This document shows positions 1,715-23,870 of a DNA stretch of 32,000 bases, piece after piece. The stretch spans positions 1,370,654 to 1,402,653 of the forward strand of contig NC_020449.1 of the NCBI RefSeq assembly GCF_000146065.2. The letters run 5' to 3'. A program made the position numbers and the translations under genes. The notes under the pieces are model-generated. The model saw only the letters and a list, made by a program, of their open reading frames with translations. It had not been told where the DNA came from and did not search any database. Source of the stretch: Candidatus Cloacimonas acidaminovorans str. Evry. GTDB taxonomy: Bacteria > Cloacimonadota > Cloacimonadia > Cloacimonadales > Cloacimonadaceae. Numbering within the stretch: the first letter of the stretch is position 1; each line of letters opens with the position of its first letter.

Positions 1715-3499
1715 TTATCCGTGTTTATGAGTAATTTCTGCGGTAACTTGTCCGTTGAATACGGAGCGTTTAAAGTAATGTGTATGTAATAGCTTAAGGG
1801 CAAGTTTGGAATTTGGCTCACCGAGGAATTTTTCATAGACCTTTAGAACTTCCGGATTATGATGCGACATTCTAACAGGTAAATTACGGTCTTCTTCATA
1901 TAAAGCCAAACCTCTTCTCGCTCTGGAAGCAATATCATTGCCGTAAGGTTGGCCTCCTCCACCTACACAACCTCCCGGACAAGCCATAATTTCAATAAAA
2001 TGCCAGGGGGATTCACCTTTTGTGGCAAGACCTTCACGCACACGATCAAGAACCTTACGCGCGTTGGAAAGTCCATGAGCAACAGCTACATTCACTTTTC
2101 CAAAGCCGGGAACATCAACCGATGCTTCTTTAACTCCTTCCAGTCCACGCACTGCCGTAATATCCACATTCTGCAAATCAGTGCCAGTTACAAGGTAATA
2201 AGCACTACGAATTGCAGCTTCCATAACTCCGCCTGTGGCTCCAAAAATTGTTCCTGCACCGGTATAAAAACTCATTCCTTCGTCCGGTTCTTCATCCGGT
2301 ATGTTAGCAAAATCAATTCCCGCTTCTTTAATCATCCGAATAAATTCCCGCGTTGTTAAAACATAATCGGTATCCTGAAAACCGCTATCGCTTAATTCTG
2401 GACGTCGTGCTTCAAATTTCTTAGCGGTGCATGGCATAATGGCAACCGAGACAATTTTAGCAGGATCAATTCCTTTTTCCTGGGCATAATAGGTCTTGGA
2501 AAGAACTCCAAACATACTCATAGGTGATTTTGCCGTTGAAACACAATCCGCTAAATCGGGATAATAGGTCTCCATAAATTTAATCCAACCGGGAGAACAG
2601 GAAGTAATCAGCGGTCTCTTTTCTCCCGCTTTCAGTTTGGTTACGCATTCCGTGCCTTCTTCCATAATGGTTAAATCGGCAGTAAAATTGGTATCCATAA
2701 CCGAATCAAAACCGATTTTACGCAGAGCTGCATACATTTTTTTAGGAGTTACGCTACCTAAAGGCATTCCAAATTCTTCACCTAAAGAAACACGAATGGA
2801 AGGTGCTTCCTGAACTATCACATGTTTTTCAGGGTCTAAAATCGCTTCCCAAACAGCATCCAGTTCACTTCTTTCGTGCAATGCACCCGTAGGACAATAA
2901 ACAGTACACTGACCACAATTAACACATGGGCTATTTGCCATTCCCTGACTGAAGGCAGTATCAATATGGGTATCAATTCCTCTTTCGGCAAAAGTGAGAG
3001 CATAAACCGTTTGCACTTCGTTACATACGGTTATACAACGTCCGCATCCGATACATTTATTGGTATCTCTGATAATGGACAAACTGGATTCATCGGCAGG
3101 TGTTTTAACCAAAATGTTAGGTAACGCCTCAGAATCCACTCCCAGATTATTTGCCAGGGATTGTAATTCGCATTTATTGTTGGCAGGACAAGTAGGACAG
3201 GTTACATCATGATTGGAAAGAATCATTTCCACAACTGTCTTACGATAGGAACGAAGTTTCTTTGAATTAGTAACAATTTTCATTCCTTCCGCCACAGGAG
3301 TACAACAGGCACGTTTGGGAGTTGGATTTCCTGCAATTTCCACAACACAAACACCACAATTTCCTGTAGGAGGTAAATCGGGGTGATAACACAAACGGGG
3401 AATATAAATTCCAATTTTATCTGCGGCTTCTATAATAGTCATTGTCTCCGGAACTTCCAGATGATGACCGTCTATAAAGACATTTACTGTTTTAGCCAT
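1715..3499 (-). CDS. hydA: [FeFe] hydrogenase catalytic subunit, multi-cluster (M3-type) as in NADH/ferredoxin-dependent bifurcating enzymes
   Basis: The 594-aa protein has an N-terminal 2Fe-2S region (CYHPDLPPTGNCGVCVVE) and a His/Cys cluster (HDVTCPTCPANNKC). Two 4Fe-4S motifs follow (CIGCGRCITVC, CVNCGQCTVYCP). H-cluster motifs are TSCSPGW, MPCTAKKFE and EIMACPGGCVGGGGQP. An SD-like aagagga lies upstream. Confidence 0.95.
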   Translation of the reverse strand: MAKTVNVFIDGHHLEVPETMTIIEAADKIGIYIPRLCYHPDLPPTGNCGVCVVEIAGNPTPKRACCTPVAEGMKIVTNSKKLRSYRKTVVEMILSNHDVTCPTCPANNKCELQSLANNLGVDSEALPNILVKTPADESSLSIIRDTNKCIGCGRCITVCNEVQTVYALTFAERGIDTHIDTAFSQGMANSPCVNCGQCTVYCPTGALHERSELDAVWEAILDPEKHVIVQEAPSIRVSLGEEFGMPLGSVTPKKMYAALRKIGFDSVMDTNFTADLTIMEEGTECVTKLKAGEKRPLITSCSPGWIKFMETYYPDLADCVSTAKSPMSMFGVLSKTYYAQEKGIDPAKIVSVAIMPCTAKKFEARRPELSDSGFQDTDYVLTTREFIRMIKEAGIDFANIPDEEPDEGMSFYTGAGTIFGATGGVMEAAIRSAYYLVTGTDLQNVDITAVRGLEGVKEASVDVPGFGKVNVAVAHGLSNARKVLDRVREGLATKGESPWHFIEIMACPGGCVGGGGQPYGNDIASRARRGLALYEEDRNLPVRMSHHNPEVLKVYEKFLGEPNSKLALKLLHTHYFKRSVFNGQVTAEITHKHG

Positions 3500-3520
3500 A
3501 ATATCAATCCTCTTATTTTC

Positions 3521-5083
3521 TTACTTTTTGGTTATTTCAATGAATTCATCGGTAAAATTTTCAATCGCACTGCGAACAGCCATAATTGGCGATTGACCTA
3601 AAGCACAGAAAGATGTTTGCTGCATTGTTTCAGCTATTAAGAGCATTAAATTCACATCTTCCATAGTCCCATTTCCTTTGCGGATTTTGGAAATTAGCTG
3701 ATAAAGCTGTTGGGTTCCGTTTTTACAAGGAGAACATTTTCCGCAGGATTCATGGCGGAAGAAACGCAGAATACTCCAAAGCAAATCAACAATACTCTGG
3801 TGTTCATTCAAAACTAAAATGGCTCCGCTACCTAAAACAGCAGAATATTGATTCAAGCTGGTAAAATCCATTTTCACATCTAAAAGGCGATCGGGAAGAA
3901 TAACTCCGGCTGCTCCACCTACCAATGCTGCTTTGAAACGGAAACCTTTTTTCATTCCACCTGCATAATCGTTGATAATGGTTCTTAAAGTTGTTCCCAT
4001 ATCCACTTCGCAAAGTCCCGGATAAGCAACATCTCCAAGAATTGTATAGACCTTAGTTCCAGGACAATCAGGGGTTCCATATTGCAAAAATTCATCGGCA
4101 CCCTTGGCAATAATGAAAGGCACATTTGCTAAGGTCTCAACATTATTAACTATCGTAGGAGCTTTCCAAAGTCCTTCCACTCCGGGAAAAGGTGGTTTCC
4201 AACGCGGAGTTCCTCTGTTTCCTTCCAGGGATTCAATTAAAGCTGTTTCCTCTCCACAAACATAAGCTCCGGCTCCAATTTTGAGTTCAATATCCAAGTC
4301 AAATCCGCTATCAAAGATATTTTTGCCTAAAATGCCATAGTCATAAGCTTGTTTAATGGCTTTTTCCAAACGGGCAATACAGAGCTTATATTCACCGCGG
4401 ATATAAATATATGCCTTACTGGCACCTACCGCACGCGCACAAAGTATAATACCTTCCAGCAATTGATGCGGGTCTCCTTCCATAATTAAACGGTCTTTAA
4501 AAGTGCCGGGTTCTCCTTCATCAGCATTAACAACTACATATTTTTGGGGAACATCAAGAGCGGATGTAAAGCTCCATTTAAGACCTGCAGGAAATGCTGC
4601 TCCGCCTCTTCCTTTCAATCCCGATTTTTTCACTTCGGCAATAATATCATTTGGTTGCATATTAGTTAATGCCTTTTCCAATGCTACATAGCCGCCAGCA
4701 CCAATATAGTCATCAATATTTTCGGGGTCAATGATACCTGAATTGCGTAAAACAATGCGGTTTTCATAGTTGAACTTGGGACTAAATTTTTCTGTAACTC
4801 CAACCATTAAGCGTTTTACCGGGCGTCCTTTCAGGAAATGTTCCTGCACAAGTTCCGGAATATCTTCTATTTTAACGCCTTCATAATTGATGTTTTCGGG
4901 ATATACAGTCAAGCAAATCCCTCTGCCGAAAAAGCCCAAAGGTCCTGTTTCCAGAATATTGATTTCTTCCGCTAAATCATTTTTGGCTAATTCATTGCGG
5001 AGAGCAGTAATAAATTCCTGAACTCCAGCTGCGAGAGAGGTCTCATTAATTGAGACCAAAATATGACTGCGATAGAATTTCAT
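3521..5083 (-). CDS. NuoF-like flavoprotein paralog with FMN/NADH site and one 4Fe-4S, lacking the C-terminal ferredoxin domain and the N-terminal cluster cysteines
   Basis: The 520-aa protein carries GLKGRGGAAFPAGLKW, NADEGEPGTFKDR and ESCGKCSPCKNG...CALGQS. Its N-terminal thioredoxin-like region reads VSINETS...GPLGFFG where the 619-aa paralog has CCGSGC...GCMGPC. It ends directly after the N3-type cluster. The start overlaps the upstream stop by 1 nt. Confidence 0.85.
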   Translation of the reverse strand: MKFYRSHILVSINETSLAAGVQEFITALRNELAKNDLAEEINILETGPLGFFGRGICLTVYPENINYEGVKIEDIPELVQEHFLKGRPVKRLMVGVTEKFSPKFNYENRIVLRNSGIIDPENIDDYIGAGGYVALEKALTNMQPNDIIAEVKKSGLKGRGGAAFPAGLKWSFTSALDVPQKYVVVNADEGEPGTFKDRLIMEGDPHQLLEGIILCARAVGASKAYIYIRGEYKLCIARLEKAIKQAYDYGILGKNIFDSGFDLDIELKIGAGAYVCGEETALIESLEGNRGTPRWKPPFPGVEGLWKAPTIVNNVETLANVPFIIAKGADEFLQYGTPDCPGTKVYTILGDVAYPGLCEVDMGTTLRTIINDYAGGMKKGFRFKAALVGGAAGVILPDRLLDVKMDFTSLNQYSAVLGSGAILVLNEHQSIVDLLWSILRFFRHESCGKCSPCKNGTQQLYQLISKIRKGNGTMEDVNLMLLIAETMQQTSFCALGQSPIMAVRSAIENFTDEFIEITKK

Positions 5084-14576: not shown

Positions 14577-14691
14577 TATTATCTATGGCTGTTCTATTGA
14601 ATTCTGATGGAACAGATACAGAATAATGGATTTTTTTGAACTTTGTGGCAAATTGTGGTTTGCCATCCTGCAAAAAACTAAAAGGAAGATA

Positions 14692-15792
14692 ATGAAAAAA
14701 GTAATACTAATTTCGGGTATTCTATTCTTTTCCACCCTGTTATTTGCCCAATCCACCTTTTTTTGGATTGAAGATGTTCCCTGGGATGATGGAAAGGCGC
14801 TAAACATTAAAGCAAATGTTCCTGCCGATACTGTCTATCTGCAAAAAGCTTTGGAAGATGGAACCTGGGAAACAATTTACACCGGTAGAGGAAGGTCTCT
14901 TTCCTTTACGCAAAATGAACTCAATCCTGATATTAAATACAGATACCGTTTGCTGGTTCCGCGTCCTGCATTTAATGATACCATATTTTTTATGGCAGAA
15001 GCTCAACCAAAGGAACAATGGTTCTATCTGCACAAGCTTTCCTATCTTTTAATTCTGCTTGCTGTTTCCATTGCTATTATCTATTATGTACAAAATGCTC
15101 GCAAAGGAAAGGAATATTATATTCGCAGGATTAGCGGTCTGGATTGTATTGAGGATTCCATTGGCAGGGCTACGGAAAAAGGAAAACCCATTCTTTTTGT
15201 TCCCGGAATTATGGATTTGGATGATATTCAAACTATTTCCAGTTTAACCATCTTAAGCCATTTGGCTCATAAAGCGGCGGAATATGATACGGAAATAATT
15301 GTTCCCTGCAGGTTTTCTATGGTTTTATCCGCTGCCCGAGAAGTAGTAAAAGAAGCATATATCAAAGCTGAAAAGCCCGATGCTTACAATCAGGATAGGA
15401 TTTTTTACTTAACCGATGATCAATTTGGTTATGTAGCAGGAATTGATGGAATTATGGTACGCGAACAGCCAGCAGCCAATTTTTTCCTCGGAAGTTTTTA
15501 TGCCGAATCCTTAATTTTAGCTGAAACCGGTTTTAGTACAGGCGCAATTCAAACGGCTGGAACCGCTCAGGCAAGTCAATTACCCTTTTTTGTGGTCTCT
15601 TGTGATTACACTTTGATTGGAGAAGAACTTTTTGCCGCTTCCGCTTATCTTTCGCGTGATCCGCAACAGCTGGGTTCTTTAAAGGGTCATGATTTCGGTA
15701 AACTTTTAGTAATTCTATTAATTATAGCTGGAGTAATAACAGAAATGTCTGGCTGGCATTGGTTTAAAGCATTTTTTGAGGGGGCACAATGA
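14692..15792 (+). CDS. Uncharacterised envelope protein: signal peptide, beta-rich N-terminal domain, TM helix, soluble domain, C-terminal TM helix
   Basis: Track ORF 14626..15792. The in-frame ATG at 14692 follows aaaggaag and gives the signal peptide MKKVILISGILFFSTLLFAQ. The C-terminal half resembles the protein at 16484..17314. Confidence 0.6.
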   Translation: MKKVILISGILFFSTLLFAQSTFFWIEDVPWDDGKALNIKANVPADTVYLQKALEDGTWETIYTGRGRSLSFTQNELNPDIKYRYRLLVPRPAFNDTIFFMAEAQPKEQWFYLHKLSYLLILLAVSIAIIYYVQNARKGKEYYIRRISGLDCIEDSIGRATEKGKPILFVPGIMDLDDIQTISSLTILSHLAHKAAEYDTEIIVPCRFSMVLSAAREVVKEAYIKAEKPDAYNQDRIFYLTDDQFGYVAGIDGIMVREQPAANFFLGSFYAESLILAETGFSTGAIQTAGTAQASQLPFFVVSCDYTLIGEELFAASAYLSRDPQQLGSLKGHDFGKLLVILLIIAGVITEMSGWHWFKAFFEGAQ

Positions 15793-16487
15793 AGTATAAA
15801 ATCCCTCTTGTCTTTGCCTTTGTATGTGGAATTCTTGTAGTTATTTCCGAATTTATTCCCCACCGTCCTTTCAATATGCTGATTACCACTTTGCAGGATT
15901 GGTTTATGATTATTTCCGGTTTTGCCATTCTTTTAGGGCAAATCAGTTTGTTTCAGGCAAACATTAAAAAAATCAAAGAAAAAAACAAGGACTGGCCCTT
16001 TTACCTCGCGGGTCTGATTAGTTTTACTGTAATGTTAATTTTTGGCTTGCTGTGGGGAACTCAGGAATATAGAGGAATTTTTGGTCAAGGAGAAAAAATC
16101 CAGGCAACGGTAGGAATGAAACCCTTTGATTATCTGTTTGCCAATGCTTTTATGCCACTATCGTCAACAATGTTTTCCCTGCTGGCATTTTTTATTGCTT
16201 CAGCTGCTTATCGTGCTTTTATTATTCGTAGTTTTGAATCCAATCTATTAATGATTACGGCTGTAATAGTAATGTTAGGAAGAACCAGTTTTGGTGGAAT
16301 GCTTACTTCCTGGCTTCCAGAAGGGCTTAAATTTTTACATCTTCCCAATTTGAGCGATTTTATTATGGAATTTCCCAATTCTGCAGCTCAAAGGGCAATT
16401 CTGATTAGCGCTGCTTTAGGAATAATAGGAAGCAGTTTAAGGATTATTCTTGGTATTGAAAGATCCTATCTGGGAGGCGAAAAATGA
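15789..16487 (+). CDS. Polytopic membrane protein of unknown function
   Basis: The 232-aa protein has several hydrophobic helices. ATGA start/stop overlaps occur at both ends. Confidence 0.6.
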   Translation: MKYKIPLVFAFVCGILVVISEFIPHRPFNMLITTLQDWFMIISGFAILLGQISLFQANIKKIKEKNKDWPFYLAGLISFTVMLIFGLLWGTQEYRGIFGQGEKIQATVGMKPFDYLFANAFMPLSSTMFSLLAFFIASAAYRAFIIRSFESNLLMITAVIVMLGRTSFGGMLTSWLPEGLKFLHLPNLSDFIMEFPNSAAQRAILISAALGIIGSSLRIILGIERSYLGGEK

Positions 16488-17314
16488 GCGCTAATAAAAA
16501 TACCCAAACCGAACGCAGAATAATCTATTTAGTCCTTTTAGTTGCAGTTGCTCTGCCCCTTATTTTTCCTATCGGCTGGAAAACAGAGGTCTCCAGCTAC
16601 ACAAAAATGGCTTGGGAACTGATTCAAAATACCCCGGATTCTTCAGTTGTAGTTTTCTCCTTTGATTATGATCCTTCTACCCTAACAGAAATTCAACCAA
16701 TGGCAGAAGCAATGCTGGAACATTCTTTTTCCCGCAATCAAAAAATTATTGCTGTGGCTCTTTGGCCTCAAGGTGTGCAAATGGCAGACCAGGCATTTAC
16801 TGTAGCCCTTAAAAAATATCCTGAGAAAAAATATGGTGTGGATTATGTTAATTTGGGCTACAAAGTTGCAGGCATTGTTGCTATTCAAGCAATGGGAAAA
16901 TCAATGCAAGAGGTTTTTCCCTCCGATCAAAGCGGGACAAAATATGAAAATATTCCAATGCTGAAAAAGGTTAAAACCCTGAAAGATGTTGCCTATATTT
17001 GTTCCCTTTCCAGTGGAACTCCAGGAATTAAAGAATGGGTTATGGCTGCCCGCGATCCTTTAGGAACTCCTGTTACAGGCGGAACTACAGCAGTTAGCGC
17101 TCCTGGTTTATTACCTTATGTAAATAGCCAGAAACAACTTTACGGCTTGCTGGGTGGACTTAAAGCTGCCTCAGAATATGAAACCCTGATCAATAAAATT
17201 GGCAGCGCTACTATCAAAATGGATGCACAGTCCATTGCTCATCTGCTGATTTTAGTTTTCATCATTATCGGAAATATAAAAGCTTTCTATAGCAGAAAAA
17301 GGGGTGCACAATGA
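16484..17314 (+). CDS. Bitopic membrane protein of unknown function, paralogous to the C-terminal half of 14692..15792
   Basis: The 276-aa protein has N- and C-terminal TM helices. The segment GTPVTGGTTAVSAPGLLPYV...LYGLLGGLKAASEY parallels GAIQTAGTAQASQLPFFV...TLIGEELFAASAY in the earlier protein. Confidence 0.6.
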   Translation: MSANKNTQTERRIIYLVLLVAVALPLIFPIGWKTEVSSYTKMAWELIQNTPDSSVVVFSFDYDPSTLTEIQPMAEAMLEHSFSRNQKIIAVALWPQGVQMADQAFTVALKKYPEKKYGVDYVNLGYKVAGIVAIQAMGKSMQEVFPSDQSGTKYENIPMLKKVKTLKDVAYICSLSSGTPGIKEWVMAARDPLGTPVTGGTTAVSAPGLLPYVNSQKQLYGLLGGLKAASEYETLINKIGSATIKMDAQSIAHLLILVFIIIGNIKAFYSRKRGAQ

Positions 17315-17949
17315 GCGGATTTATGACTACCTTCGGACTTTGGCTATCAGTATTCTTCACTTTAAGCATCTTCAGCTTTCTCTATAAGGATAATCCTTTC
17401 TATAAACTCTCCGAACAAATTTTCGTAGGTCTTTCCGCTGCCTACTGGTTGGTCTATTTATATTATAGCGTTATGGTTCCCAATCTGTTCAATAAACTCT
17501 TTACCGATTTTAAGGGAAACCTGATTTTGCTTATTCCTACCGCTTTGGGTTTGATGATGCTGCTGCGCTTAATTCCAAAAGCGCAATGGCTTAGCCGTTA
17601 TCCCATTGCAATTATGATTGGCACTTCTGCCGGCATTAATATGGTACGCTATGCTAAGACAGACCTTTTGGGACAAATCAGCGCTACAATGATCAATCCC
17701 TTTGCTTCCGATAATGTTATAACTGTAATCGGTAATATACTTTTGATTGTAGGAACCATCTGCGGTGTTTATTTCTTCTATTTCAGCAAAAAACAGGAAG
17801 GCATCAGAGCTGTTCCTTCCAAACTGGGAATCTGGTTTTTGATGATTAGTTTTGGCGCTTCTTTTGGCTATACGGTTATGGCTCGTATCTCTTTATTGAT
17901 AGGACGGCTGGAATTTTTGCTGAAGGATTGGCTGCACATCATTAAGTGA
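17311..17949 (+). CDS. Polytopic membrane protein of unknown function
   Basis: The 212-aa protein has about 6 hydrophobic helices and an ATGA overlap with the upstream gene. Confidence 0.6.
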   Translation: MSGFMTTFGLWLSVFFTLSIFSFLYKDNPFYKLSEQIFVGLSAAYWLVYLYYSVMVPNLFNKLFTDFKGNLILLIPTALGLMMLLRLIPKAQWLSRYPIAIMIGTSAGINMVRYAKTDLLGQISATMINPFASDNVITVIGNILLIVGTICGVYFFYFSKKQEGIRAVPSKLGIWFLMISFGASFGYTVMARISLLIGRLEFLLKDWLHIIK

Positions 17950-18699: not shown

Positions 18700-18717
18700 A
18701 GTTAATGAAAAAGGAGA

Positions 18718-18985
18718 AAAAAATAGAACGCAGATAACTGGATCAACAGGATCAGCTGGATTTTGAGAATGACTAATAGAACACAGATAACTGGATCAAC
18801 TGGATCATCAGGATTTTATGCTTGTTATAGTGTAAAACATCTTGAATTAAAATCCCTTAAATCATGATAATCCTGTTCATCCCAGACCTATTGTATCTGC
18901 GTAATCTGCGTAATCTGCGTTATCTGCGTGCTCTTTATTTTACTCAGTGTCCTCAGTGTCCTAAGTGTCTTCAGTGGTTATTTTT
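18718..18985. repeat. Mosaic intergenic repeat region A: aatagaacRcagataactggatca... x2, a unique ~50-bp core, (atctgcgtN)x4, (ctcagtgtN)x4
   Basis: Short 8-10-nt tandem words are visible. The core plus ctgcgt array (18852-18941) is nearly identical to 23752-23832. Confidence 0.85.
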
Positions 18986-19007
18986 CTCTTTTGAATCTAT
19001 GAGAGTT

Positions 19008-19055
19008 AAAAAAAGAGTTTACTGCTTTTTGATTTAACTACTCAGCAATAAACTC
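19008..19055 (-). terminator. Rho-independent terminator ending the RT-TR transcript
   Basis: The stem pairs gagtttactgc (19015-19025) with gcaataaactc (19045-19055), 10 of 11 bp. On the minus strand it is followed by T7 (plus-strand A run 19008-19014). Confidence 0.6.
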
Positions 19056-19159
19056 ACTTTCTTTTTGTCTCTTTTAGAGAACTGGATGAAGCTCTGGATT
19101 TCCCTTTTTTACATTTACTTTGCGTACAGAGTAAATTCTGATTATTATAATGGAAGATA

Positions 19160-19283
19160 CTACAAACACGGAAGCCAATGTTGTTATTGCTGTTAGTAGC
19201 ACTATTGTTGTTCCGATTCGAAACAGTGCAATTGCTGGCATTGTTGTTCCAGCTGCCGCCACGTTTCACACGGTTGGTTCCGC
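19160..19283 (-). other. DGR template repeat (TR), encoding ...SGTNRVKRGGSWNNNASNCTVSNRNNNSATNSNNNIGFRVC in the target frame
   Basis: It aligns without gaps to 21406-21529 (offset 2246). The sequence is rich in AAC/AAT codons. The upstream boundary may extend to about 19290. It overlaps the last 18 nt plus the stop codon of the RT gene. Confidence 0.9.
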
Positions 19284-20297
19284 TTTATGAACTCCACCCC
19301 AAATTAACTTTTGTAAATAATATGTATTGGCAAAACTAATAAAACCAAGGCGACTTCTTGTGCTTTGATAAAGTTTCTCTATTTCAATTTTACCTCTAAT
19401 ATATTCTTTTTCCCTTTTTTGCATATTTTGTAAACACCTTTTCAAATTTATATTACTAACTCTTATCAATTTTGGAAAAACACGGTAACCTAAAAAAGGA
19501 ATACCTTGGTTAACTTTATTCATTTGTATTGACTTGTCTTTTATTTTCAATTTTAGGATATTAGATAAAAAATATTTTATTAAAAGAAGATCACTTTTAA
19601 GCTTATCTTTGTTCTCCGAAAATAGAATAAAATCATCCATATATCTTACATATCCCTTATATCCAAGATTTTGCTTAATATAATGATCAAGCTGATTAAG
19701 GTAAATATTGGCAAAAAATTGGGAAGTTAAATTACCCACTGGTAATCCAATTTCCTCATTATGATTCATACTTAGGTTCTGATTTTTAAGGATAATAGAA
19801 CATAGATTAATTATCATAGGATCTTTAATTTTACTAGATATTAATTTCAATAAAATATTATGATCTATGTTGTTAAAGAACTTCTCAATATCCAGTTTCA
19901 AAAACCAAGGGTACTGCCGGGAATATTTTTGAACTGCTAATACAGCTAAATGCAAACCCTTACCTTTACGAGTGGCATAAGAATCCTTAATAAAAATGCT
20001 TTCAAAATAAGGTTCTATAACATTTATTAGAGAATGATGCACTAATCTGTCTCTAAAAACAGCAACGCTAATCAAACGTTCCTTAGGTTCCTTAATAGTA
20101 AAGTATCTATAGGGTTGAGGACGATAGTTTCCATTAATTAATTCCTTTTGTAATTCCCATAAATTTTTCTCACAATAAAACATCCATTCTGCTGTTTCAT
20201 ACTTACTCTTTTTATGCTTACAAGCATTTTTATAAGCTAAATACAGATTCTGCCAGGAGGTTAATTTTTCCCAAAGATATCCAACCCGTTTAGGCAC
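19266..20297 (-). CDS. DGR reverse transcriptase
   Basis: The 343-aa protein has ISVAVFRDRLVHHSLINVIEP, LDIEKFFNNIDH and the DGR-typical LPVGNLTSQFFANIYLN. The catalytic motif is YVRYMDDFILF. It has no maturase/X or endonuclease domain, and its size is typical of DGR RTs. Confidence 0.93.
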   Translation of the reverse strand: MPKRVGYLWEKLTSWQNLYLAYKNACKHKKSKYETAEWMFYCEKNLWELQKELINGNYRPQPYRYFTIKEPKERLISVAVFRDRLVHHSLINVIEPYFESIFIKDSYATRKGKGLHLAVLAVQKYSRQYPWFLKLDIEKFFNNIDHNILLKLISSKIKDPMIINLCSIILKNQNLSMNHNEEIGLPVGNLTSQFFANIYLNQLDHYIKQNLGYKGYVRYMDDFILFSENKDKLKSDLLLIKYFLSNILKLKIKDKSIQMNKVNQGIPFLGYRVFPKLIRVSNINLKRCLQNMQKREKEYIRGKIEIEKLYQSTRSRLGFISFANTYYLQKLIWGGVHKAEPTV

Positions 20298-20622
20298 TTT
20301 TTAACCAACCCCCCACCATTTTACCACTTTCCAGTAATTCCTTGCTAATGTATTGATATTGATTTTCAGCTAATAATTTCATCTTATAAGCCATCTGGAT
20401 TAATGTTCTTAATACATCCAACTTTATGTTTATCTTTATCAAATATTCCCTTTTTGACGAACTGTAAATCGTTTGAACAATTAATTCCAATATCTCTAAA
20501 CAAAGGTTGTCCATTTTTTGAGCTAATGAATATCTCAAATTTTTCGGAAATCTTTCCGTTCTCCCAAATATCCAGATAGATATATCCATCCATTTTATAT
20601 ATAAAGGATAGTCATTTTTCAA
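20290..20622 (-). CDS. avd: Avd (accessory variability determinant), four-helix-bundle protein
   Basis: The 110-aa protein contains YPLYIKWMDISIWIFGRTERFPKNLRYSLAQKMDNLCLEILELIV, matching the Avd / 23S-rRNA-IVS four-helix-bundle family pattern. It overlaps the RT start by 8 nt. Confidence 0.85.
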   Translation of the reverse strand: MKNDYPLYIKWMDISIWIFGRTERFPKNLRYSLAQKMDNLCLEILELIVQTIYSSSKREYLIKINIKLDVLRTLIQMAYKMKLLAENQYQYISKELLESGKMVGGWLKSA

Positions 20623-21052
20623 TTTCTAATACCGCCTCTTGTAATAATTTGATTATCTGTTCCCCATACTTTTCCGCTTTACTCTTCATCCCTTTTATAG
20701 AAGAAAAATCACTAATAGTTTTGGGTTGTTTTTTCACAATCTCATAAATCTGGGAATTATACATAATAATATAAGCAGGAAAGCCCTCATTGGCAGCTAA
20801 TTCATTACGCCAATCCCTTAATTTTTCATATTGAGCTTGTTCCAATTCACTTAAACTTTCCATATCAGGTATAAAATGACTCCCCTTTCTTGGTAAATAC
20901 TCTATAAAAAAAGAATAATAGATATTCCCTTCGTTATTGATAAATTCTTTTTCTACGCGAATTATATTATTATTCTGACAAAATTGATTGAATCCCTGAT
21001 CTTCAAAAACTCCTTTGTCTCTGTCAAATCTTACTAACATCAATTTAAACAT
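20612..21052 (-). CDS. HRDC-domain DGR accessory protein
   Basis: In the 146-aa protein, the C-terminal ~75 aa (QYEKLRDWRNELAANEGFPAYIIMYNSQIYEIVKKQPKTISDFSSIKGMKSKAEKYGEQII) fit the HRDC helical pattern. It overlaps the avd start by 11 nt. Confidence 0.7.
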   Translation of the reverse strand: MFKLMLVRFDRDKGVFEDQGFNQFCQNNNIIRVEKEFINNEGNIYYSFFIEYLPRKGSHFIPDMESLSELEQAQYEKLRDWRNELAANEGFPAYIIMYNSQIYEIVKKQPKTISDFSSIKGMKSKAEKYGEQIIKLLQEAVLEIEK

Positions 21053-21270
21053 TTATACTTAATCTCTTCTTTGCAACTTTCACCTACAAATTCTATTTTT
21101 TGGTTAAAGCTACTTCTAATATAGTTTCCATATTGAAACTGCAGTTATTTTAGTAAAACTATTATGGATTCCTGCTTTCTTATGAATGATAAAGTGCTTT
21201 TCAATCTTAAAATGATATAAATAAGCATCTTATTATTAACTTTTCTATGTTATCAGGATATGTTTTCATT

Positions 21271-21308
21271 TGAAAAAAAAATTTCAGCAGGGGGATATAT
21301 CCCCCTGC
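21271..21308 (-). terminator. Rho-independent terminator of the target-gene transcript, a GC-rich palindromic hairpin
   Basis: gcagggggatatatccccctgc (21287-21308) forms a 9-bp stem with a tata loop. On the minus strand it is followed by tgaaa and then T9 (plus-strand A run 21273-21281). It lies about 100 nt downstream of the VR. Confidence 0.75.
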
Positions 21309-21405
21309 ACCCCCTATCAATTCTTCTCTTCTTAATTCTTTCATTTTGGTTCTTACTTGGCAAAAGGCAAAAAGGTAAAAAAGCAAAAATCAATCAAGGG
21401 AAACC

Positions 21406-21529
21406 CTACAAACACGGAAGCCAAAGTCGTTACTGCTGTAAGTAGCACTATCGTAGTTGCGAACCGAAACAGTGCAATTGCTGGCATTGTAGTACCAGCT
21501 GCCGCCACGTCACACACGGCCGGCCCCGC
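21406..21529 (-). other. DGR variable repeat (VR), encoding ...SGAGRV*RGGSWYYNASNCTVSVRNYDSATYSSNDFGFRVC
   Basis: It differs from the TR at 17 of 124 positions. Sixteen are at TR coding-strand A and one is a synonymous CGG to CGC change. It contains an in-frame TGA at 21510-21512. Confidence 0.9.
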
Positions 21530-22478
21530 TTGTTGATCCGGTTGGATTGGTTTGAGGTCCTGAAGGATAACTTCCATAAATATCCCAACAACATTCCCAA
21601 ACATTTCCACTCATATCAAAAATTTGTAACTCATTAGCTTGTTTACCCCCTACAGGATGAGTAGTGCTACCGGAATTGCCGGTATACCAGGCAACATCTC
21701 CTACAGTATTACTCCCGCTATAGGTATAATTATGAGTTGAGTTTCCACCCCGGGCAGCAAACATCCATTCCATTTCAGTTGGTAAACGATAGCCATTAGC
21801 AGTCCAGTTACAACTGACATTAGTATGATTTTCACTATTTGTATTCCAGCCGGAGGGCCAGTTACTGGGATTGGTGCCATAATTTTGATAACTGTAACAG
21901 GGAGTAAGATTTTCCTGCATACTTCTCCGGTTACAATATTCAATGGCATTGAACCAAGTTACTCTCTCCACAGGCCTACTAAGATCACCGGTAAAATTAG
22001 AGGGATTTGTTCCCATTACTGCTTGATATTCACCTTGAGTAATTTCATTTTTATCAAGATAAAATGTGCTAATGGTTACATCTGAAGTGCCGTTATTAAA
22101 GGTTCCTCCTGTTACTGTAATAAACCCTACCGGTTGAGTGCTTGGAGAGGGATTATCGCGGGCAATTAATTTAATCTTGTAATTAGTGCCGGTACTCATT
22201 CCATCTTGTACTGGATACCAGGTTATCTGTTTTCCTGTTCCTGCACTAACACTATTACCAATAGCACCTGAGGTATGAGTTGGTGAAAATGTGTAGCTTA
22301 AGCCACCATTATTGGAAACCAACATAATCACTTGGCAGTTTTCATCAGCAGAAAGATCATAAGAAATAGTAACATATCCTGTATGAGTTGTTACGGATAC
22401 ATTACTAACAGTTGGAGCCGCGGAAAAAAGTATTCCCCAGAAAAATACGGCTAAAATAGTAATCAGAATTTGTTTCAT
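21510..22478 (-). CDS. DGR target: secreted FGE-sulfatase / C-type-lectin-fold protein, as sequenced truncated by a TGA inside the VR (the frame continues to a second stop at 21390-21392)
   Basis: The 322-aa protein has a signal peptide MKQILITILAVFFWGILFSA, an Ig-like domain and FGE-family motifs (VTGGTFNNG, PVERVTWFNAIEYCN, YRLPTEMEWMFAARGG). Past the TGA the same frame reads RGGSW...GFRVCRVSLD for 39 more codons. Confidence 0.85.
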   Translation of the reverse strand: MKQILITILAVFFWGILFSAAPTVSNVSVTTHTGYVTISYDLSADENCQVIMLVSNNGGLSYTFSPTHTSGAIGNSVSAGTGKQITWYPVQDGMSTGTNYKIKLIARDNPSPSTQPVGFITVTGGTFNNGTSDVTISTFYLDKNEITQGEYQAVMGTNPSNFTGDLSRPVERVTWFNAIEYCNRRSMQENLTPCYSYQNYGTNPSNWPSGWNTNSENHTNVSCNWTANGYRLPTEMEWMFAARGGNSTHNYTYSGSNTVGDVAWYTGNSGSTTHPVGGKQANELQIFDMSGNVWECCWDIYGSYPSGPQTNPTGSTSGAGRV

Positions 22479-22489
22479 TTTTGTTCTCC

Positions 22490-23323
22490 TTATTTCATTA
22501 GTATCATTTTGGCGATATAGTTTGTTTTGTTAGTTGTTAAGCGGAAAAAGTAAAGTCCACTGGTGCAAGTAATGCCATTTTGATTTTTCCCGTCCCAAAA
22601 GTATTTGTAACGACCTGCTGATTGGTTAGGGATTACTTTATTCCACACAATCTGACCTTTCAGATTAAATATTTCCAGTATCGCCTTACTTTCTTCGGCA
22701 AGAGAATAACTTAGCCAGGTGCCAGGATTAAAAGGATTAGGATAAATACTGTCAATCCCTGTTATCAGAGGAATTTCATCATTTCCTTCCGGTATAATAA
22801 CATTGACGCTAATGGGTCCCTTAAACTGAGAAACACTATTAATATCAATCATTTCCAGCCAGTAATAGTAAATACCGGGACTATAGATTTCTGCATCTAC
22901 ATAAACATAGACCTGCATTTGAGAGGTATTGGTAGCATTAATCAAGATATTTAACATCTGAGCTTGAGACAATTCTTCATTGGTTGACCTATAAATACGA
23001 TAACCATATAAATTGGTCTCGGATTGAGTAGCCCACATTAAACGGACACTACTCCCTCCACTTTGCTCAGCTATAAAACTGGATAGCTCTACCGGAAGTG
23101 TCTCATCTGTAATCGCAAATTCATTTGATTCCCCGCTTCCACTAAGATGTTGACAGGGTATCCCAGTAATTGAAACTACACTTGATTCGCCTAAACCGGA
23201 TAAATGCTGACAGGGTATTCCAGTAATTGAAACTACACTTGATTCACCATAGCCGGTAAGAGCAAAGATACTTCCGCTAATAAGCAAGATTATAAGGAAG
23301 ATACTTTCTTTTTTCATAGCCAT
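22490..23323 (-). CDS. Secreted protein with a T9SS-type (Por_Secre_tail / FlgD-Ig-like) C-terminal sorting domain
   Basis: The 277-aa protein has a signal peptide and the C-terminus IYPNPFNPGTWLSYSL...LEIFNLKGQIV...YFWDGKNQNG...SGLYFFRL. It ends 11 nt upstream of the DGR target gene, so the two are probably co-transcribed. Confidence 0.75.
   Translation of the reverse strand: MAMKKESIFLIILLISGSIFALTGYGESSVVSITGIPCQHLSGLGESSVVSITGIPCQHLSGSGESNEFAITDETLPVELSSFIAEQSGGSSVRLMWATQSETNLYGYRIYRSTNEELSQAQMLNILINATNTSQMQVYVYVDAEIYSPGIYYYWLEMIDINSVSQFKGPISVNVIIPEGNDEIPLITGIDSIYPNPFNPGTWLSYSLAEESKAILEIFNLKGQIVWNKVIPNQSAGRYKYFWDGKNQNGITCTSGLYFFRLTTNKTNYIAKMILMK
23151..23264. repeat. 57-bp in-frame tandem duplication inside the T9SS-domain gene (19-aa unit GESSVVSITGIPCQHLSGx)
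   Basis: tgacagggtatYccagtaattgaaactacacttgattc occurs at 23151 and at 23208. Confidence 0.85.
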
Positions 23324-23380
23324 CTCCTTTAAAGGTTTTTTTACATTCTTTTTTTATACTTCATCTAAGTATCAATGCAA

Positions 23381-23408
23381 AAAATAATCAATCCCTATTC
23401 TTTGTCAA
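23381..23408 (-). promoter_or_regulatory. Candidate sigma70-like promoter for the T9SS-protein / DGR-target transcript
   Basis: The minus strand reads TTGACA (23403-23408), a 16-nt spacer, then TATTTT (23381-23386), about 55 nt upstream of the ATG. Confidence 0.35.
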
Positions 23409-23440
23409 GTGCTAATATATTATTTTTATTATTGACCTCG

Positions 23441-23452
23441 CCCCCCCCCCCC
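23441..23452. repeat. Homopolymeric C12 (G12 on the minus strand) tract
   Basis: Twelve consecutive C were read directly, in an otherwise AT-rich intergenic region. It is flanked by TTGACC (23432-23437) and TATAAC (23458-23463). Confidence 0.95.
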
Positions 23453-23570
23453 GAAATTATAACAAATAGTTGTATATCTCATATTTATTCAAGAAGTTAC
23501 TAATGTTGATAAATTTCCACAATACCCTAAAAAATATTTTTTCTACCAAAGAGAAAAGCGGAAAAAGAGA

Positions 23571-23870
23571 AAAAATAGAACACAGATAACTGGATCAGCT
23601 GGATTTTATATTATATAAGAATAATTATAAGTAAAAATCTGCGTTATCTGCGTTATCTGCGTGCTCTTATTTTTCTCGGTGTTCTCGGTGTACTCAGTGT
23701 CTTCTGTGTTCTCGGTGTAAAAAATAAAATCTGGATGAACTAAAATCTTTTATCCCTTAAATCCTGATAATCCTGTTCATCCCAGACCTATTGTATCTGC
23801 GAAATCTGCGTTATCTGCGTGCTCTTATTTTTTATCCGTGTTCTTATTTAATCTGTGGAATCTGTGAGAG
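23571..23870. repeat. Mosaic intergenic repeat region B, with the same modules as region A
   Basis: aatagaacacagataactggatcagctggatttt is at 23574-23607. (atctgcgtt)n gctcttattttt occurs at 23637-23672 and again at 23795-23832. (ctcggtgtN)n is at 23674-23718. The core cccttaaatcctgataatcctgttcatcccagacctattgt is at 23754-23794. Confidence 0.85.

Follow-up and report, generated by a model that had tools for sequence, protein, structure and literature searches.

The stretch analysed here, 32,000 nucleotides (nt) from Candidatus Cloacimonas acidaminovorans str. Evry (contig NC_020449.1, positions 1,370,654 to 1,402,653; hereafter the window), carries a diversity-generating retroelement (DGR), all genes of which lie on the minus strand. 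The locus comprises a target gene with a variable repeat (VR), a gene for an HRDC-domain protein, avd, a gene for a reverse transcriptase (RT), a template repeat (TR) and a structured RNA of the Rfam family RT-14. Coordinates below are those of the window, and the features are on the minus strand unless marked (+). An earlier note, made from the letters and the open reading frames (ORFs) of this DNA, had called the element a complete DGR. Every component was confirmed in the present analysis; the target, however, was found to be cut by a DGR-made TGA before its variable residues.

The TR (19160-19283) and the VR (21406-21529) matched each other without gaps over 124 nt, at an offset of 2246. 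When the alignment was recomputed on the coding (minus) strand, 17 mismatches were counted, 16 of which fell on TR adenines, the remaining one being a synonymous G>C change (CGG>CGC). Adenines make up 39 of the 124 TR bases, and the binomial chance that at least 16 of 17 mismatches fall on them is about 1e-7. The positions, the mismatch count and the adenine bias given in the earlier note were thus reproduced, and its translations of both repeats were correct. The 17-mer GGCTTCCGTGTTTGTAG, shared at the 3' end, was found only in the TR and the VR within the window, as compared with 0.03 occurrences expected by chance, and neither a self-blast with an A-bias filter nor a 17-mer search allowing three mismatches revealed a second VR in the 32 kb.

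The first 18 nt of the TR are also the end of the RT ORF, stop codon included. The mutagenised stretch has its 5' limit at about 19283, upstream of which the copies differ at strain-fixed positions that are not restricted to A; at the opposite end, the identity of TR and VR stops at 21406/19160. Here the VR is followed by a specific 3' flank, GGTTTCCCTTGATTGA (21390-21405), as opposed to the TATCTTCCATTATAAT found after the TR. This flank was invariant among the strains of the species, and by analogy with the IMH/IMH* (initiation of mutagenic homing) elements of the Bordetella phage BPP-1, we consider it a candidate IMH-like homing boundary. The boundary of the VR itself has just a 4-bp AGGG/CCCT stem, and a GC-rich hairpin lies about 98 nt downstream.

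The RT gene (19266-20297) encodes a protein of 343 aa (CAO81061.1 / WP_015424919.1), which matched RVT_1 with 93 bits and contains the motifs VGNLTSQ and YMDD. In a comparison with PDB sequences, it scored 177 bits to the 328-aa RT 8ub7_A (entries 8ub7-8ube), as compared with 93 bits to group II RTs and about 30 bits to retron RTs, and R74, I/V181 and Q187 were aligned between the window RT and 8ub7_A. From its residue numbering and its N-terminus, 8ub7 is probably the BPP-1 enzyme (bRT); a literature search found no publication on 8UB7. The sequence [I/V/L]GxxxSQ is a signature of DGR RTs (PMC7826257, PMC3521204), with QGxxxSP taking its place in group II and retroviral enzymes (PMC7826257), and roles of R74 and I181 in DGR RTs have been described (PMC7826257). 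As judged by motif and profile scores, the enzyme is of the DGR type, in line with the signature motif pointed out in the earlier note. The closest RT match in a scan of genome contigs was 76% identical. Among the RT relatives, a TR directly after the RT gene was the commonest layout, and in the closest ones the TR overlaps the end of that gene.

Two accessory genes precede the RT gene. The avd gene (20290-20622), which starts with TTG, encodes 110 aa and overlaps the RT gene by 8 nt (20290-20297). Its product exceeded the cutoffs of both the NCBIfam equivalog NF033474 (DivGenRetAVD; 94.6 bits, cutoff 80) and Pfam bAvd (PF22296; 66.7 bits, cutoff 40), which settles in profile terms what had been read as an Avd pattern; a sequence search of PDB gave no match to Avd. 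In front of avd, and overlapping it by 11 nt (20612-20622), lies the gene for the HRDC protein (20612-21052; 146 aa, CAO81064.1), in which Pfam HRDC (PF00570) was found with 63 bits, again as the earlier note had it. An AlphaFold2 model of this protein (pLDDT 89.8) showed a small N-terminal beta-alpha-beta-beta domain and a C-terminal HRDC fold. When the model was compared with PDB using Foldseek, only the HRDC domains of RecQ, RNase D and Rrp6 matched, and the N-terminal domain of 55 residues had no match. A full-length HRDC protein was kept beside avd-RT in about 21 of the closest related DGR loci, from several phyla, and by analogy the protein possibly plays a role in the element. The earlier note had named three findings that would speak against its reading, namely an alignment without adenine bias, an RT of the group II intron or retron type, and a missing Avd match; what we found was an adenine-biased alignment, a DGR-type RT and an Avd match above both cutoffs.

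The target gene as deposited (21510-22478, from the ORF list and its translation) encodes 322 aa and is cut by a TGA at 21510-21512. Its product has a signal-peptide-like N-terminus and an N-terminal region without a family match, followed by an FGE-sulfatase/C-type lectin (CLec) domain. With the stop replaced by K, Pfam FGE-sulfatase matched with 121 bits over residues 121-357 (profile positions 7-254 of 255), covering the VR. The best solved relative was TvpA, the DGR variable protein of Treponema denticola (2y3c), with 145 bits over residues 132-357, VR included. These matches bear out the target family that the earlier note had assigned, whereas the variable C-terminus that it claimed for the protein lies beyond the in-frame TGA.

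Variation within the species and haplotypes without the engine

An identical RT protein was found on at least 22 contigs, which come from independent digester metagenomes and single-cell genomes. The sample used for comparing TR and VR consisted of RT-bearing contigs, three metagenome contigs obtained via a DNA pattern, and contigs obtained via the neighbouring aldolase gene. A scan of metagenomes with 20-mers returned 10 loci, of which L095, L096 and L100 were usable (L numbers are our locus labels); the other seven, L091-L094 and L097-L099, were unrelated or chance matches. In what follows, the engine denotes the 2.4-kb segment (window 21344 to about 18950) that holds a terminator hairpin, the HRDC gene, avd, the RT gene, the TR and RT-14.

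The TR was identical in every engine-bearing assembly checked. For the VR, 15 distinct alleles occurred in the species; relative to the TR, they show 265 changes at TR-A positions and 10 elsewhere. In the first 8 of these alleles, 36 of the 39 TR adenines varied, with 67 A>G, 61 A>T and 11 A>C changes. A constant TR, together with VR alleles that vary almost solely at TR adenines, shows that the element is active in nature. The earlier note had looked to related genomes for polymorphism confined to TR-adenine positions, and once that comparison was carried out, the VR variation proved to be almost confined to them, with the TR invariant.

Some of the changes outside adenines stood out. The VR allele of L001 and L009 contains, at about window 21468-21472, a cluster GCACTG>GCGAAG with two non-A changes (C>A and T>A), and two independent alleles have C and T, respectively, in place of the TR G at 19213, located in CGG. 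Such changes suggest low-level non-adenine misincorporation at specific sites.

Four contigs of the species (L095, L100, L108 and L110), from four samples, carry an intact target gene and the gene for a protein sorted by the type IX secretion system (T9SS) that lies upstream of it, without the engine. A unique 32-nt junction sequence, GTAAGAAAAGGTTAAAGCTGAATTTTTTGAGCC, was common to L095 (2685-2718), L100 and L110. The four contigs have four different VR alleles, and the differences of these alleles from the TR lie almost all at TR-A positions. Such a pattern could result from recombination between strains, repeated loss of the engine, a copy acting in trans, or mixing during assembly. Strains with and without the 2.4-kb engine, carrying diversified VRs, offer a system in which diversification in trans can be set against the spread of alleles by recombination.

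An RT-14 RNA at the 3' end of the template repeat

An RNA of three helices (19014-19155) begins 5 nt after the TR. It matched Rfam RT-14 (RF02921) over the full model (positions 1-144) with 59.4 bits, above the gathering score of 48.1, and RT-14 was the sole Rfam family in the window. The 3' helix of RT-14 and a run of seven T residues, together spanning 19007-19056, were delimited from the cmscan alignment and from RNA folding (z = -2.7), and are likely to be the intrinsic terminator of the HRDC-avd-RT-TR transcript. A GC-rich hairpin, GCAGGGGGATATATCCCCCTGC, with its T-run (21271-21308; terminator scan and DNA folding), is likely to be the intrinsic terminator of the target transcription unit. 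The earlier note had placed a terminator at each of these two sites. The hairpin and T-run of the target unit stood, at 21287-21308, while the other one, at 19008-19055, is a real hairpin with a T-run but forms part of the larger RT-14 RNA. Matches to Clostridiales-2 at the target terminator (23 bits, as compared with a gathering score of 58.6), and sub-threshold Rfam matches to the LcrF thermometer, mir-7, mir-509 and DUF805b in the region, were judged to be due to chance.

The RNA was then surveyed at 80 loci with related RTs. Rfam RT-14 scored above threshold at two of them, following the TR downstream of the RT gene in L011 and the TR upstream of the RT gene in L017. Covariance models made from the RT-14 hits placed the RNA at the TR 3' end also in L012, L013 and L014, with weaker matches at the TR 3' end in L018, L037, L056, L078 and L084. 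Among the six best sequences, compensatory changes were seen in 17 of 26 pairs, a number that none of 500 shuffles reached, and 92.7% of the alignment cells were paired, as compared with about 40% in slid controls, in an alignment that was fitted to the model and is biased somewhat towards structure.

The sister motif RT-10 was located by Weinberg et al. (2017) in the spacer between TR and RT of BPP-1, and a DGR role of the other RT motifs was speculated upon (PMC5737381). This spacer (Sp) binds Avd and supplies the priming adenosine (PMC7826257). Since RT-10 lies in the BPP-1 spacer and Sp binds Avd and primes, we infer that RT-14 is its equivalent in the present DGR clade; on this analogy, RT-14 is probably the RT/Avd-binding and priming element of the template RNA. 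A literature search found no publication linking RT-14 to DGRs, nor one on a Cloacimonas DGR. The orphan motif RT-14 is now anchored to the 3' end of the TR of an active DGR, and can be tested as the candidate RNA for priming and Avd binding in the HRDC-containing DGR clade.

On the model of BPP-1, the following cycle may be proposed. The HRDC-avd-RT operon would be transcribed through the TR and RT-14 as far as the terminator formed by the last helix of RT-14. A complex of RT and Avd, possibly with the HRDC protein, would bind the RT-14 region, which would also provide the priming site. Synthesis of cDNA would proceed from the 3' end of the TR (about 19160) to about 19283, with misincorporation opposite adenines. 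The cDNA would then replace the VR at 21406-21529, with the VR-specific flank after 21406 marking the homing boundary.

The stop codon in the target gene and the competing explanations

The in-frame TGA of the target (21510-21512) lies inside the VR, opposite the TR codon AAA (19264-19266 in the target frame), which is the sole TR codon that mutagenesis of adenines can turn into a stop. The TGA arises from this codon by A>T and A>G, so that the stop, too, was made by two substitutions at adenines. Owing to the 18 nt that the TR shares with the end of the RT ORF, the first A of the AAA codon doubles as the last base of the RT stop TGA (19266-19268). Beyond the stop, the target frame (21389-21509; ...GAGRV*RGGSWYYNASNCTVSVRNYDSATYSSNDFGFRVCRVSLD*), which is untranslated in this allele, extends over a further 40 codons and reaches its natural stop at 21389-21391, and both the frame and the natural stop are shared with the 362-aa alleles of other strains. 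The variable C-terminus is therefore not translated from this sequence, in which the target ends at residue 322 and lacks its variable ligand-binding part. In all other assemblies the product has 362 or 363 aa, and an exact look-up of the 322-aa product returned no record elsewhere. Whether or not the allele is real, the target encoded by the deposited sequence is truncated and will be annotated accordingly; this is a warning to annotation pipelines, by which the target will be called truncated or a pseudogene.

In the 14 other alleles, the codon at this position reads ATA, CTA, TTA, AGG, ACT, GGA or GTA. Using the base frequencies in these alleles, we expected stops at the AAA codon in about 5% of unselected cases, and one stop in 15 alleles is therefore unremarkable for mutagenesis; in E. 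coli, bRT converts AAA/AAG to stop at about 1% (PMC12875486). A commonly stated design rule holds that TR adenines are placed so that mutagenesis makes no nonsense codons (bioRxiv 10.1101/2023.09.22.558884; PMC12875486). The present element departs from it, with AAA in frame in the TR and TGA in the VR. Of about 55 related TR/VR pairs, about 20 contained an AAA or AAG codon, suggesting that the rule is a tendency and not a law. The AAA at RV[K]RGGSW was kept in seven related TRs from several phyla, among them L011, L012, L014, L017, L018 and L032, and in L017 it is kept although the TR does not overlap the RT gene there. A natural nonsense codon written by a DGR into its own target bears on the claim that the codon design of the TR prevents nonsense.

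With the TR, the engine and the VR flanks intact, a further homing event could reopen the target frame. One might go further and regard the AAA codon, located at the 5' margin of the mutagenised stretch, as a built-in stochastic OFF switch of which the window shows a natural OFF allele, an idea that we consider improbable. If it were true, the surface protein would be cut short ahead of its variable face in a few percent of homing events and made whole again by the next one, and the DGR would provide phase variation besides diversification.

The explanation that competes best accepts the DGR but takes the TGA to be an artefact of assembly or consensus, in which VR variants were mixed column by column and no cell carries a truncated target. 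The VR alleles of the species are indeed highly heterogeneous, and a column-wise mix of the existing TTA (L003, L006 and L096) and GGA (L010, L106 and L108) alleles gives TGA. Moreover, the window VR is the same as that of L010 over its first 20 nt except for the T of the TGA codon, and the truncated product is recorded nowhere else. In addition, the Evry genome was assembled from clones of a digester metagenome. On the other hand, outside this codon the window VR reads as one coherent allele, with only A-site changes and one synonymous change, and the frequency of one stop in 15 is near the unselected expectation, with bRT also making such stops at the rate cited above. We regard an artefact as unlikely, though it deserves more weight than any other alternative.

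A decayed and inactive relic, in which the stop marks pseudogenisation of the target, would fit the interrupted ORF and the strains that have lost the engine entirely. However, RT, Avd and the HRDC protein are intact, the RT is 100% identical across many samples, and an invariant TR stands beside VR changes that number 265 at A sites and 10 at non-A sites. The VR beyond the stop differs from the TR at A sites and by one synonymous change, with no sign of random decay, and A>T and A>G changes of a TR codon account for the stop. A relic is contradicted by these data and very unlikely. We give even less credence to readthrough or recoding of the TGA with production of a full-length target, in favour of which there is the open frame past the TGA and nothing more. 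TGA also serves as the stop of two genes of this operon, those for the RT (19266-19268) and the HRDC protein (20612-20614), the long housekeeping ORFs of the window are uninterrupted under table 11, and the window yielded neither a tRNA gene nor a recoding RNA; in other strains, the codon is hypervariable, unlike a dedicated recoding site. Lastly, the notion that the RT is that of a group II intron or retron and the repeat pair a coincidence, suggested by the nearest NCBIfam model (group II intron RT/maturase TIGR04416, 163 bits) and by the public annotation of homologues as 'retron-type' or 'maturase', is already refuted by the tests and has a negligible probability: the 163 bits are far below the cutoff of 300, the retron model NF038233 reached 51.6 bits against a cutoff of 235, the Rfam matches in the window included neither a group II intron nor a retron RNA family, the RT has VGNLTSQ rather than QGxxxSP (PMC7826257) and scores 177 bits to the bRT-like PDB chain as compared with 93 to group II RTs, and it is accompanied by Avd and by a repeat with A bias.

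Taken together, these data argue for a genuine, chromosomal and currently active DGR in the order target, HRDC, avd, RT, TR and RT-14 RNA, to which we assign a probability of about 0.93. Several points weigh on the other side. The parts given to RT-14 (priming), to the flank at 21390-21405 and to the HRDC protein are putative and drawn from analogy. The diversified VRs of the engine-less contigs are not explained by a simple cis-only model alone. The TGA was seen in one assembly alone, that is, in 1 of 15 alleles, and in a genome reconstructed from a digester metagenome it could be a consensus of two alleles. A promoter scan was uninformative, with 22 sites as compared with 23.9 expected, and no promoter is claimed.

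Genomic setting and comparison with known systems

The neighbours of the cassette are housekeeping genes, with a class II aldolase gene and genes for membrane proteins on one side, and genes for glutaminyl-tRNA synthetase (GlnRS; CAO81068.1 by exact protein match), a glycosyltransferase and DnaX on the other. The context is chromosomal and not that of a prophage. The T9SS-sorted protein is encoded by a 277-aa ORF (22490-23323), 11 nt upstream of the target gene, and showed matches to Por_Secre_tail, TIGR04183 and FlgD_ig. In the related DGR locus L011, the target is likewise preceded by an 81%-identical homologue. This ORF is probably an operon partner of the target and not a component of the DGR, co-transcription being judged from the spacing alone. 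The T9SS protein contains a 57-nt (19-aa) tandem duplication at 23109-23222 (..GESSVVSITGIPCQHLSG..), and its length differs among strains (256, 275, 277 and 278 aa).

Together, the T9SS gene, the target and the DGR engine form a block (about 18990 to 23570) that is bracketed by copies of a composite intergenic repeat in the same orientation. In this repeat, the motif ATAGAACRCAGATAACTGGATCA accompanies 9-nt tandem arrays of the form (ATCTGCGTA)n and (CTCAGTGTC)n. One copy lies at the aldolase-side flank (18717-18980, +), and a second copy or copies at the GlnRS-side flank (23565-23850, +), with no further copies elsewhere in the 32-kb window. The repeat was found at both flanks in L001-L010, with additional downstream copies in L008 and L009. 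In the engine-less contig L095, the interval from the flank repeat to the aldolase gene (2900-3740) holds an array of tandem repeats of about 100 nt (..CGAGGGGCTTACGC.ACCATCGCTATAACTGT..CGGGCTTTTTTGAAACCCGGAATGTGAAAAG..), which is absent from the window. Adjoining the DGR, 4 or 5 overlapping or abutting ORFs at 14626-17949 (+), kept in all strains, encode a DUF6754 protein followed by proteins of 232, 276 and 212 aa without a Pfam match, which are apparently membrane proteins; this run is an uncharacterised operon.

The DGR of Candidatus Cloacimonas acidaminovorans is already known as a catalogue entry, its architecture is a known one, and the core finding contains no new biology. The supplementary table of DiGReF (2012) includes, without further remark, a DGR RT of 'Candidatus Cloacamonas acidaminovorans' under GI 218961492 (PMC3521204); the entry does not mention the stop codon in the VR, RT-14, the population variation or the engine-less haplotypes. 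In that catalogue, elements with a TR downstream of the RT form group 2, and those whose TR overlaps the RT ORF at its end form group 3 (Schillinger et al. 2012, PMC3521204); the present element resembles both, with a TR that lies downstream of the RT gene and overlaps the end of its ORF. HRDC-containing DGRs are known as 'Architecture C', the type example of which is the Treponema DGR, and about half of the Architecture C cassettes also have avd (Wu et al. 2018, PMC5758913). An HRDC gene lies within the present cassette, which places it in this class.

As in the Treponema denticola DGR (TvpA, 2Y3C), the target is an FGE-sulfatase-type CLec protein with a C-terminal VR, an HRDC gene is present, and the element is cellular and chromosomal. 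Unlike that DGR, it has both HRDC and avd, a TR located after the RT gene and overlapping it, a host from the Cloacimonadota and a nonsense codon in the VR. With the BPP-1 DGR (mtd-avd-TR-Sp-brt), it shares Avd, an RT with [I/V/L]GxxxSQ and R74, and adenine-specific transfer from TR to VR. In both, the TR is followed directly on its 3' side by a structured RNA of about 140 nt, which is Sp (Rfam RT-10) in BPP-1 and RT-14 here. The two systems differ in gene order (avd-RT-TR-RNA here, avd-TR-RNA-RT in BPP-1) and in the additional HRDC protein found here. The present target is of the FGE type and its DGR chromosomal, whereas BPP-1 has a CLec target of the Mtd type and a phage-borne element. In addition, no (G/C)14 element was evident at the VR end of the present DGR, where the GC hairpin lies about 98 nt past the VR and not directly after the IMH as in BPP-1.

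With regard to the RNA, PMC5737381 linked RT-10 alone to a DGR, while 19014-19155 matches the full RT-14 model above its gathering score. The present analysis goes beyond that work in setting RT-14 at the TR 3' end of an active DGR and of several of its relatives. The details that go beyond the catalogue are thus the self-made nonsense codon, the RT-14 RNA at the TR 3' end and the presence/absence polymorphism of the engine.

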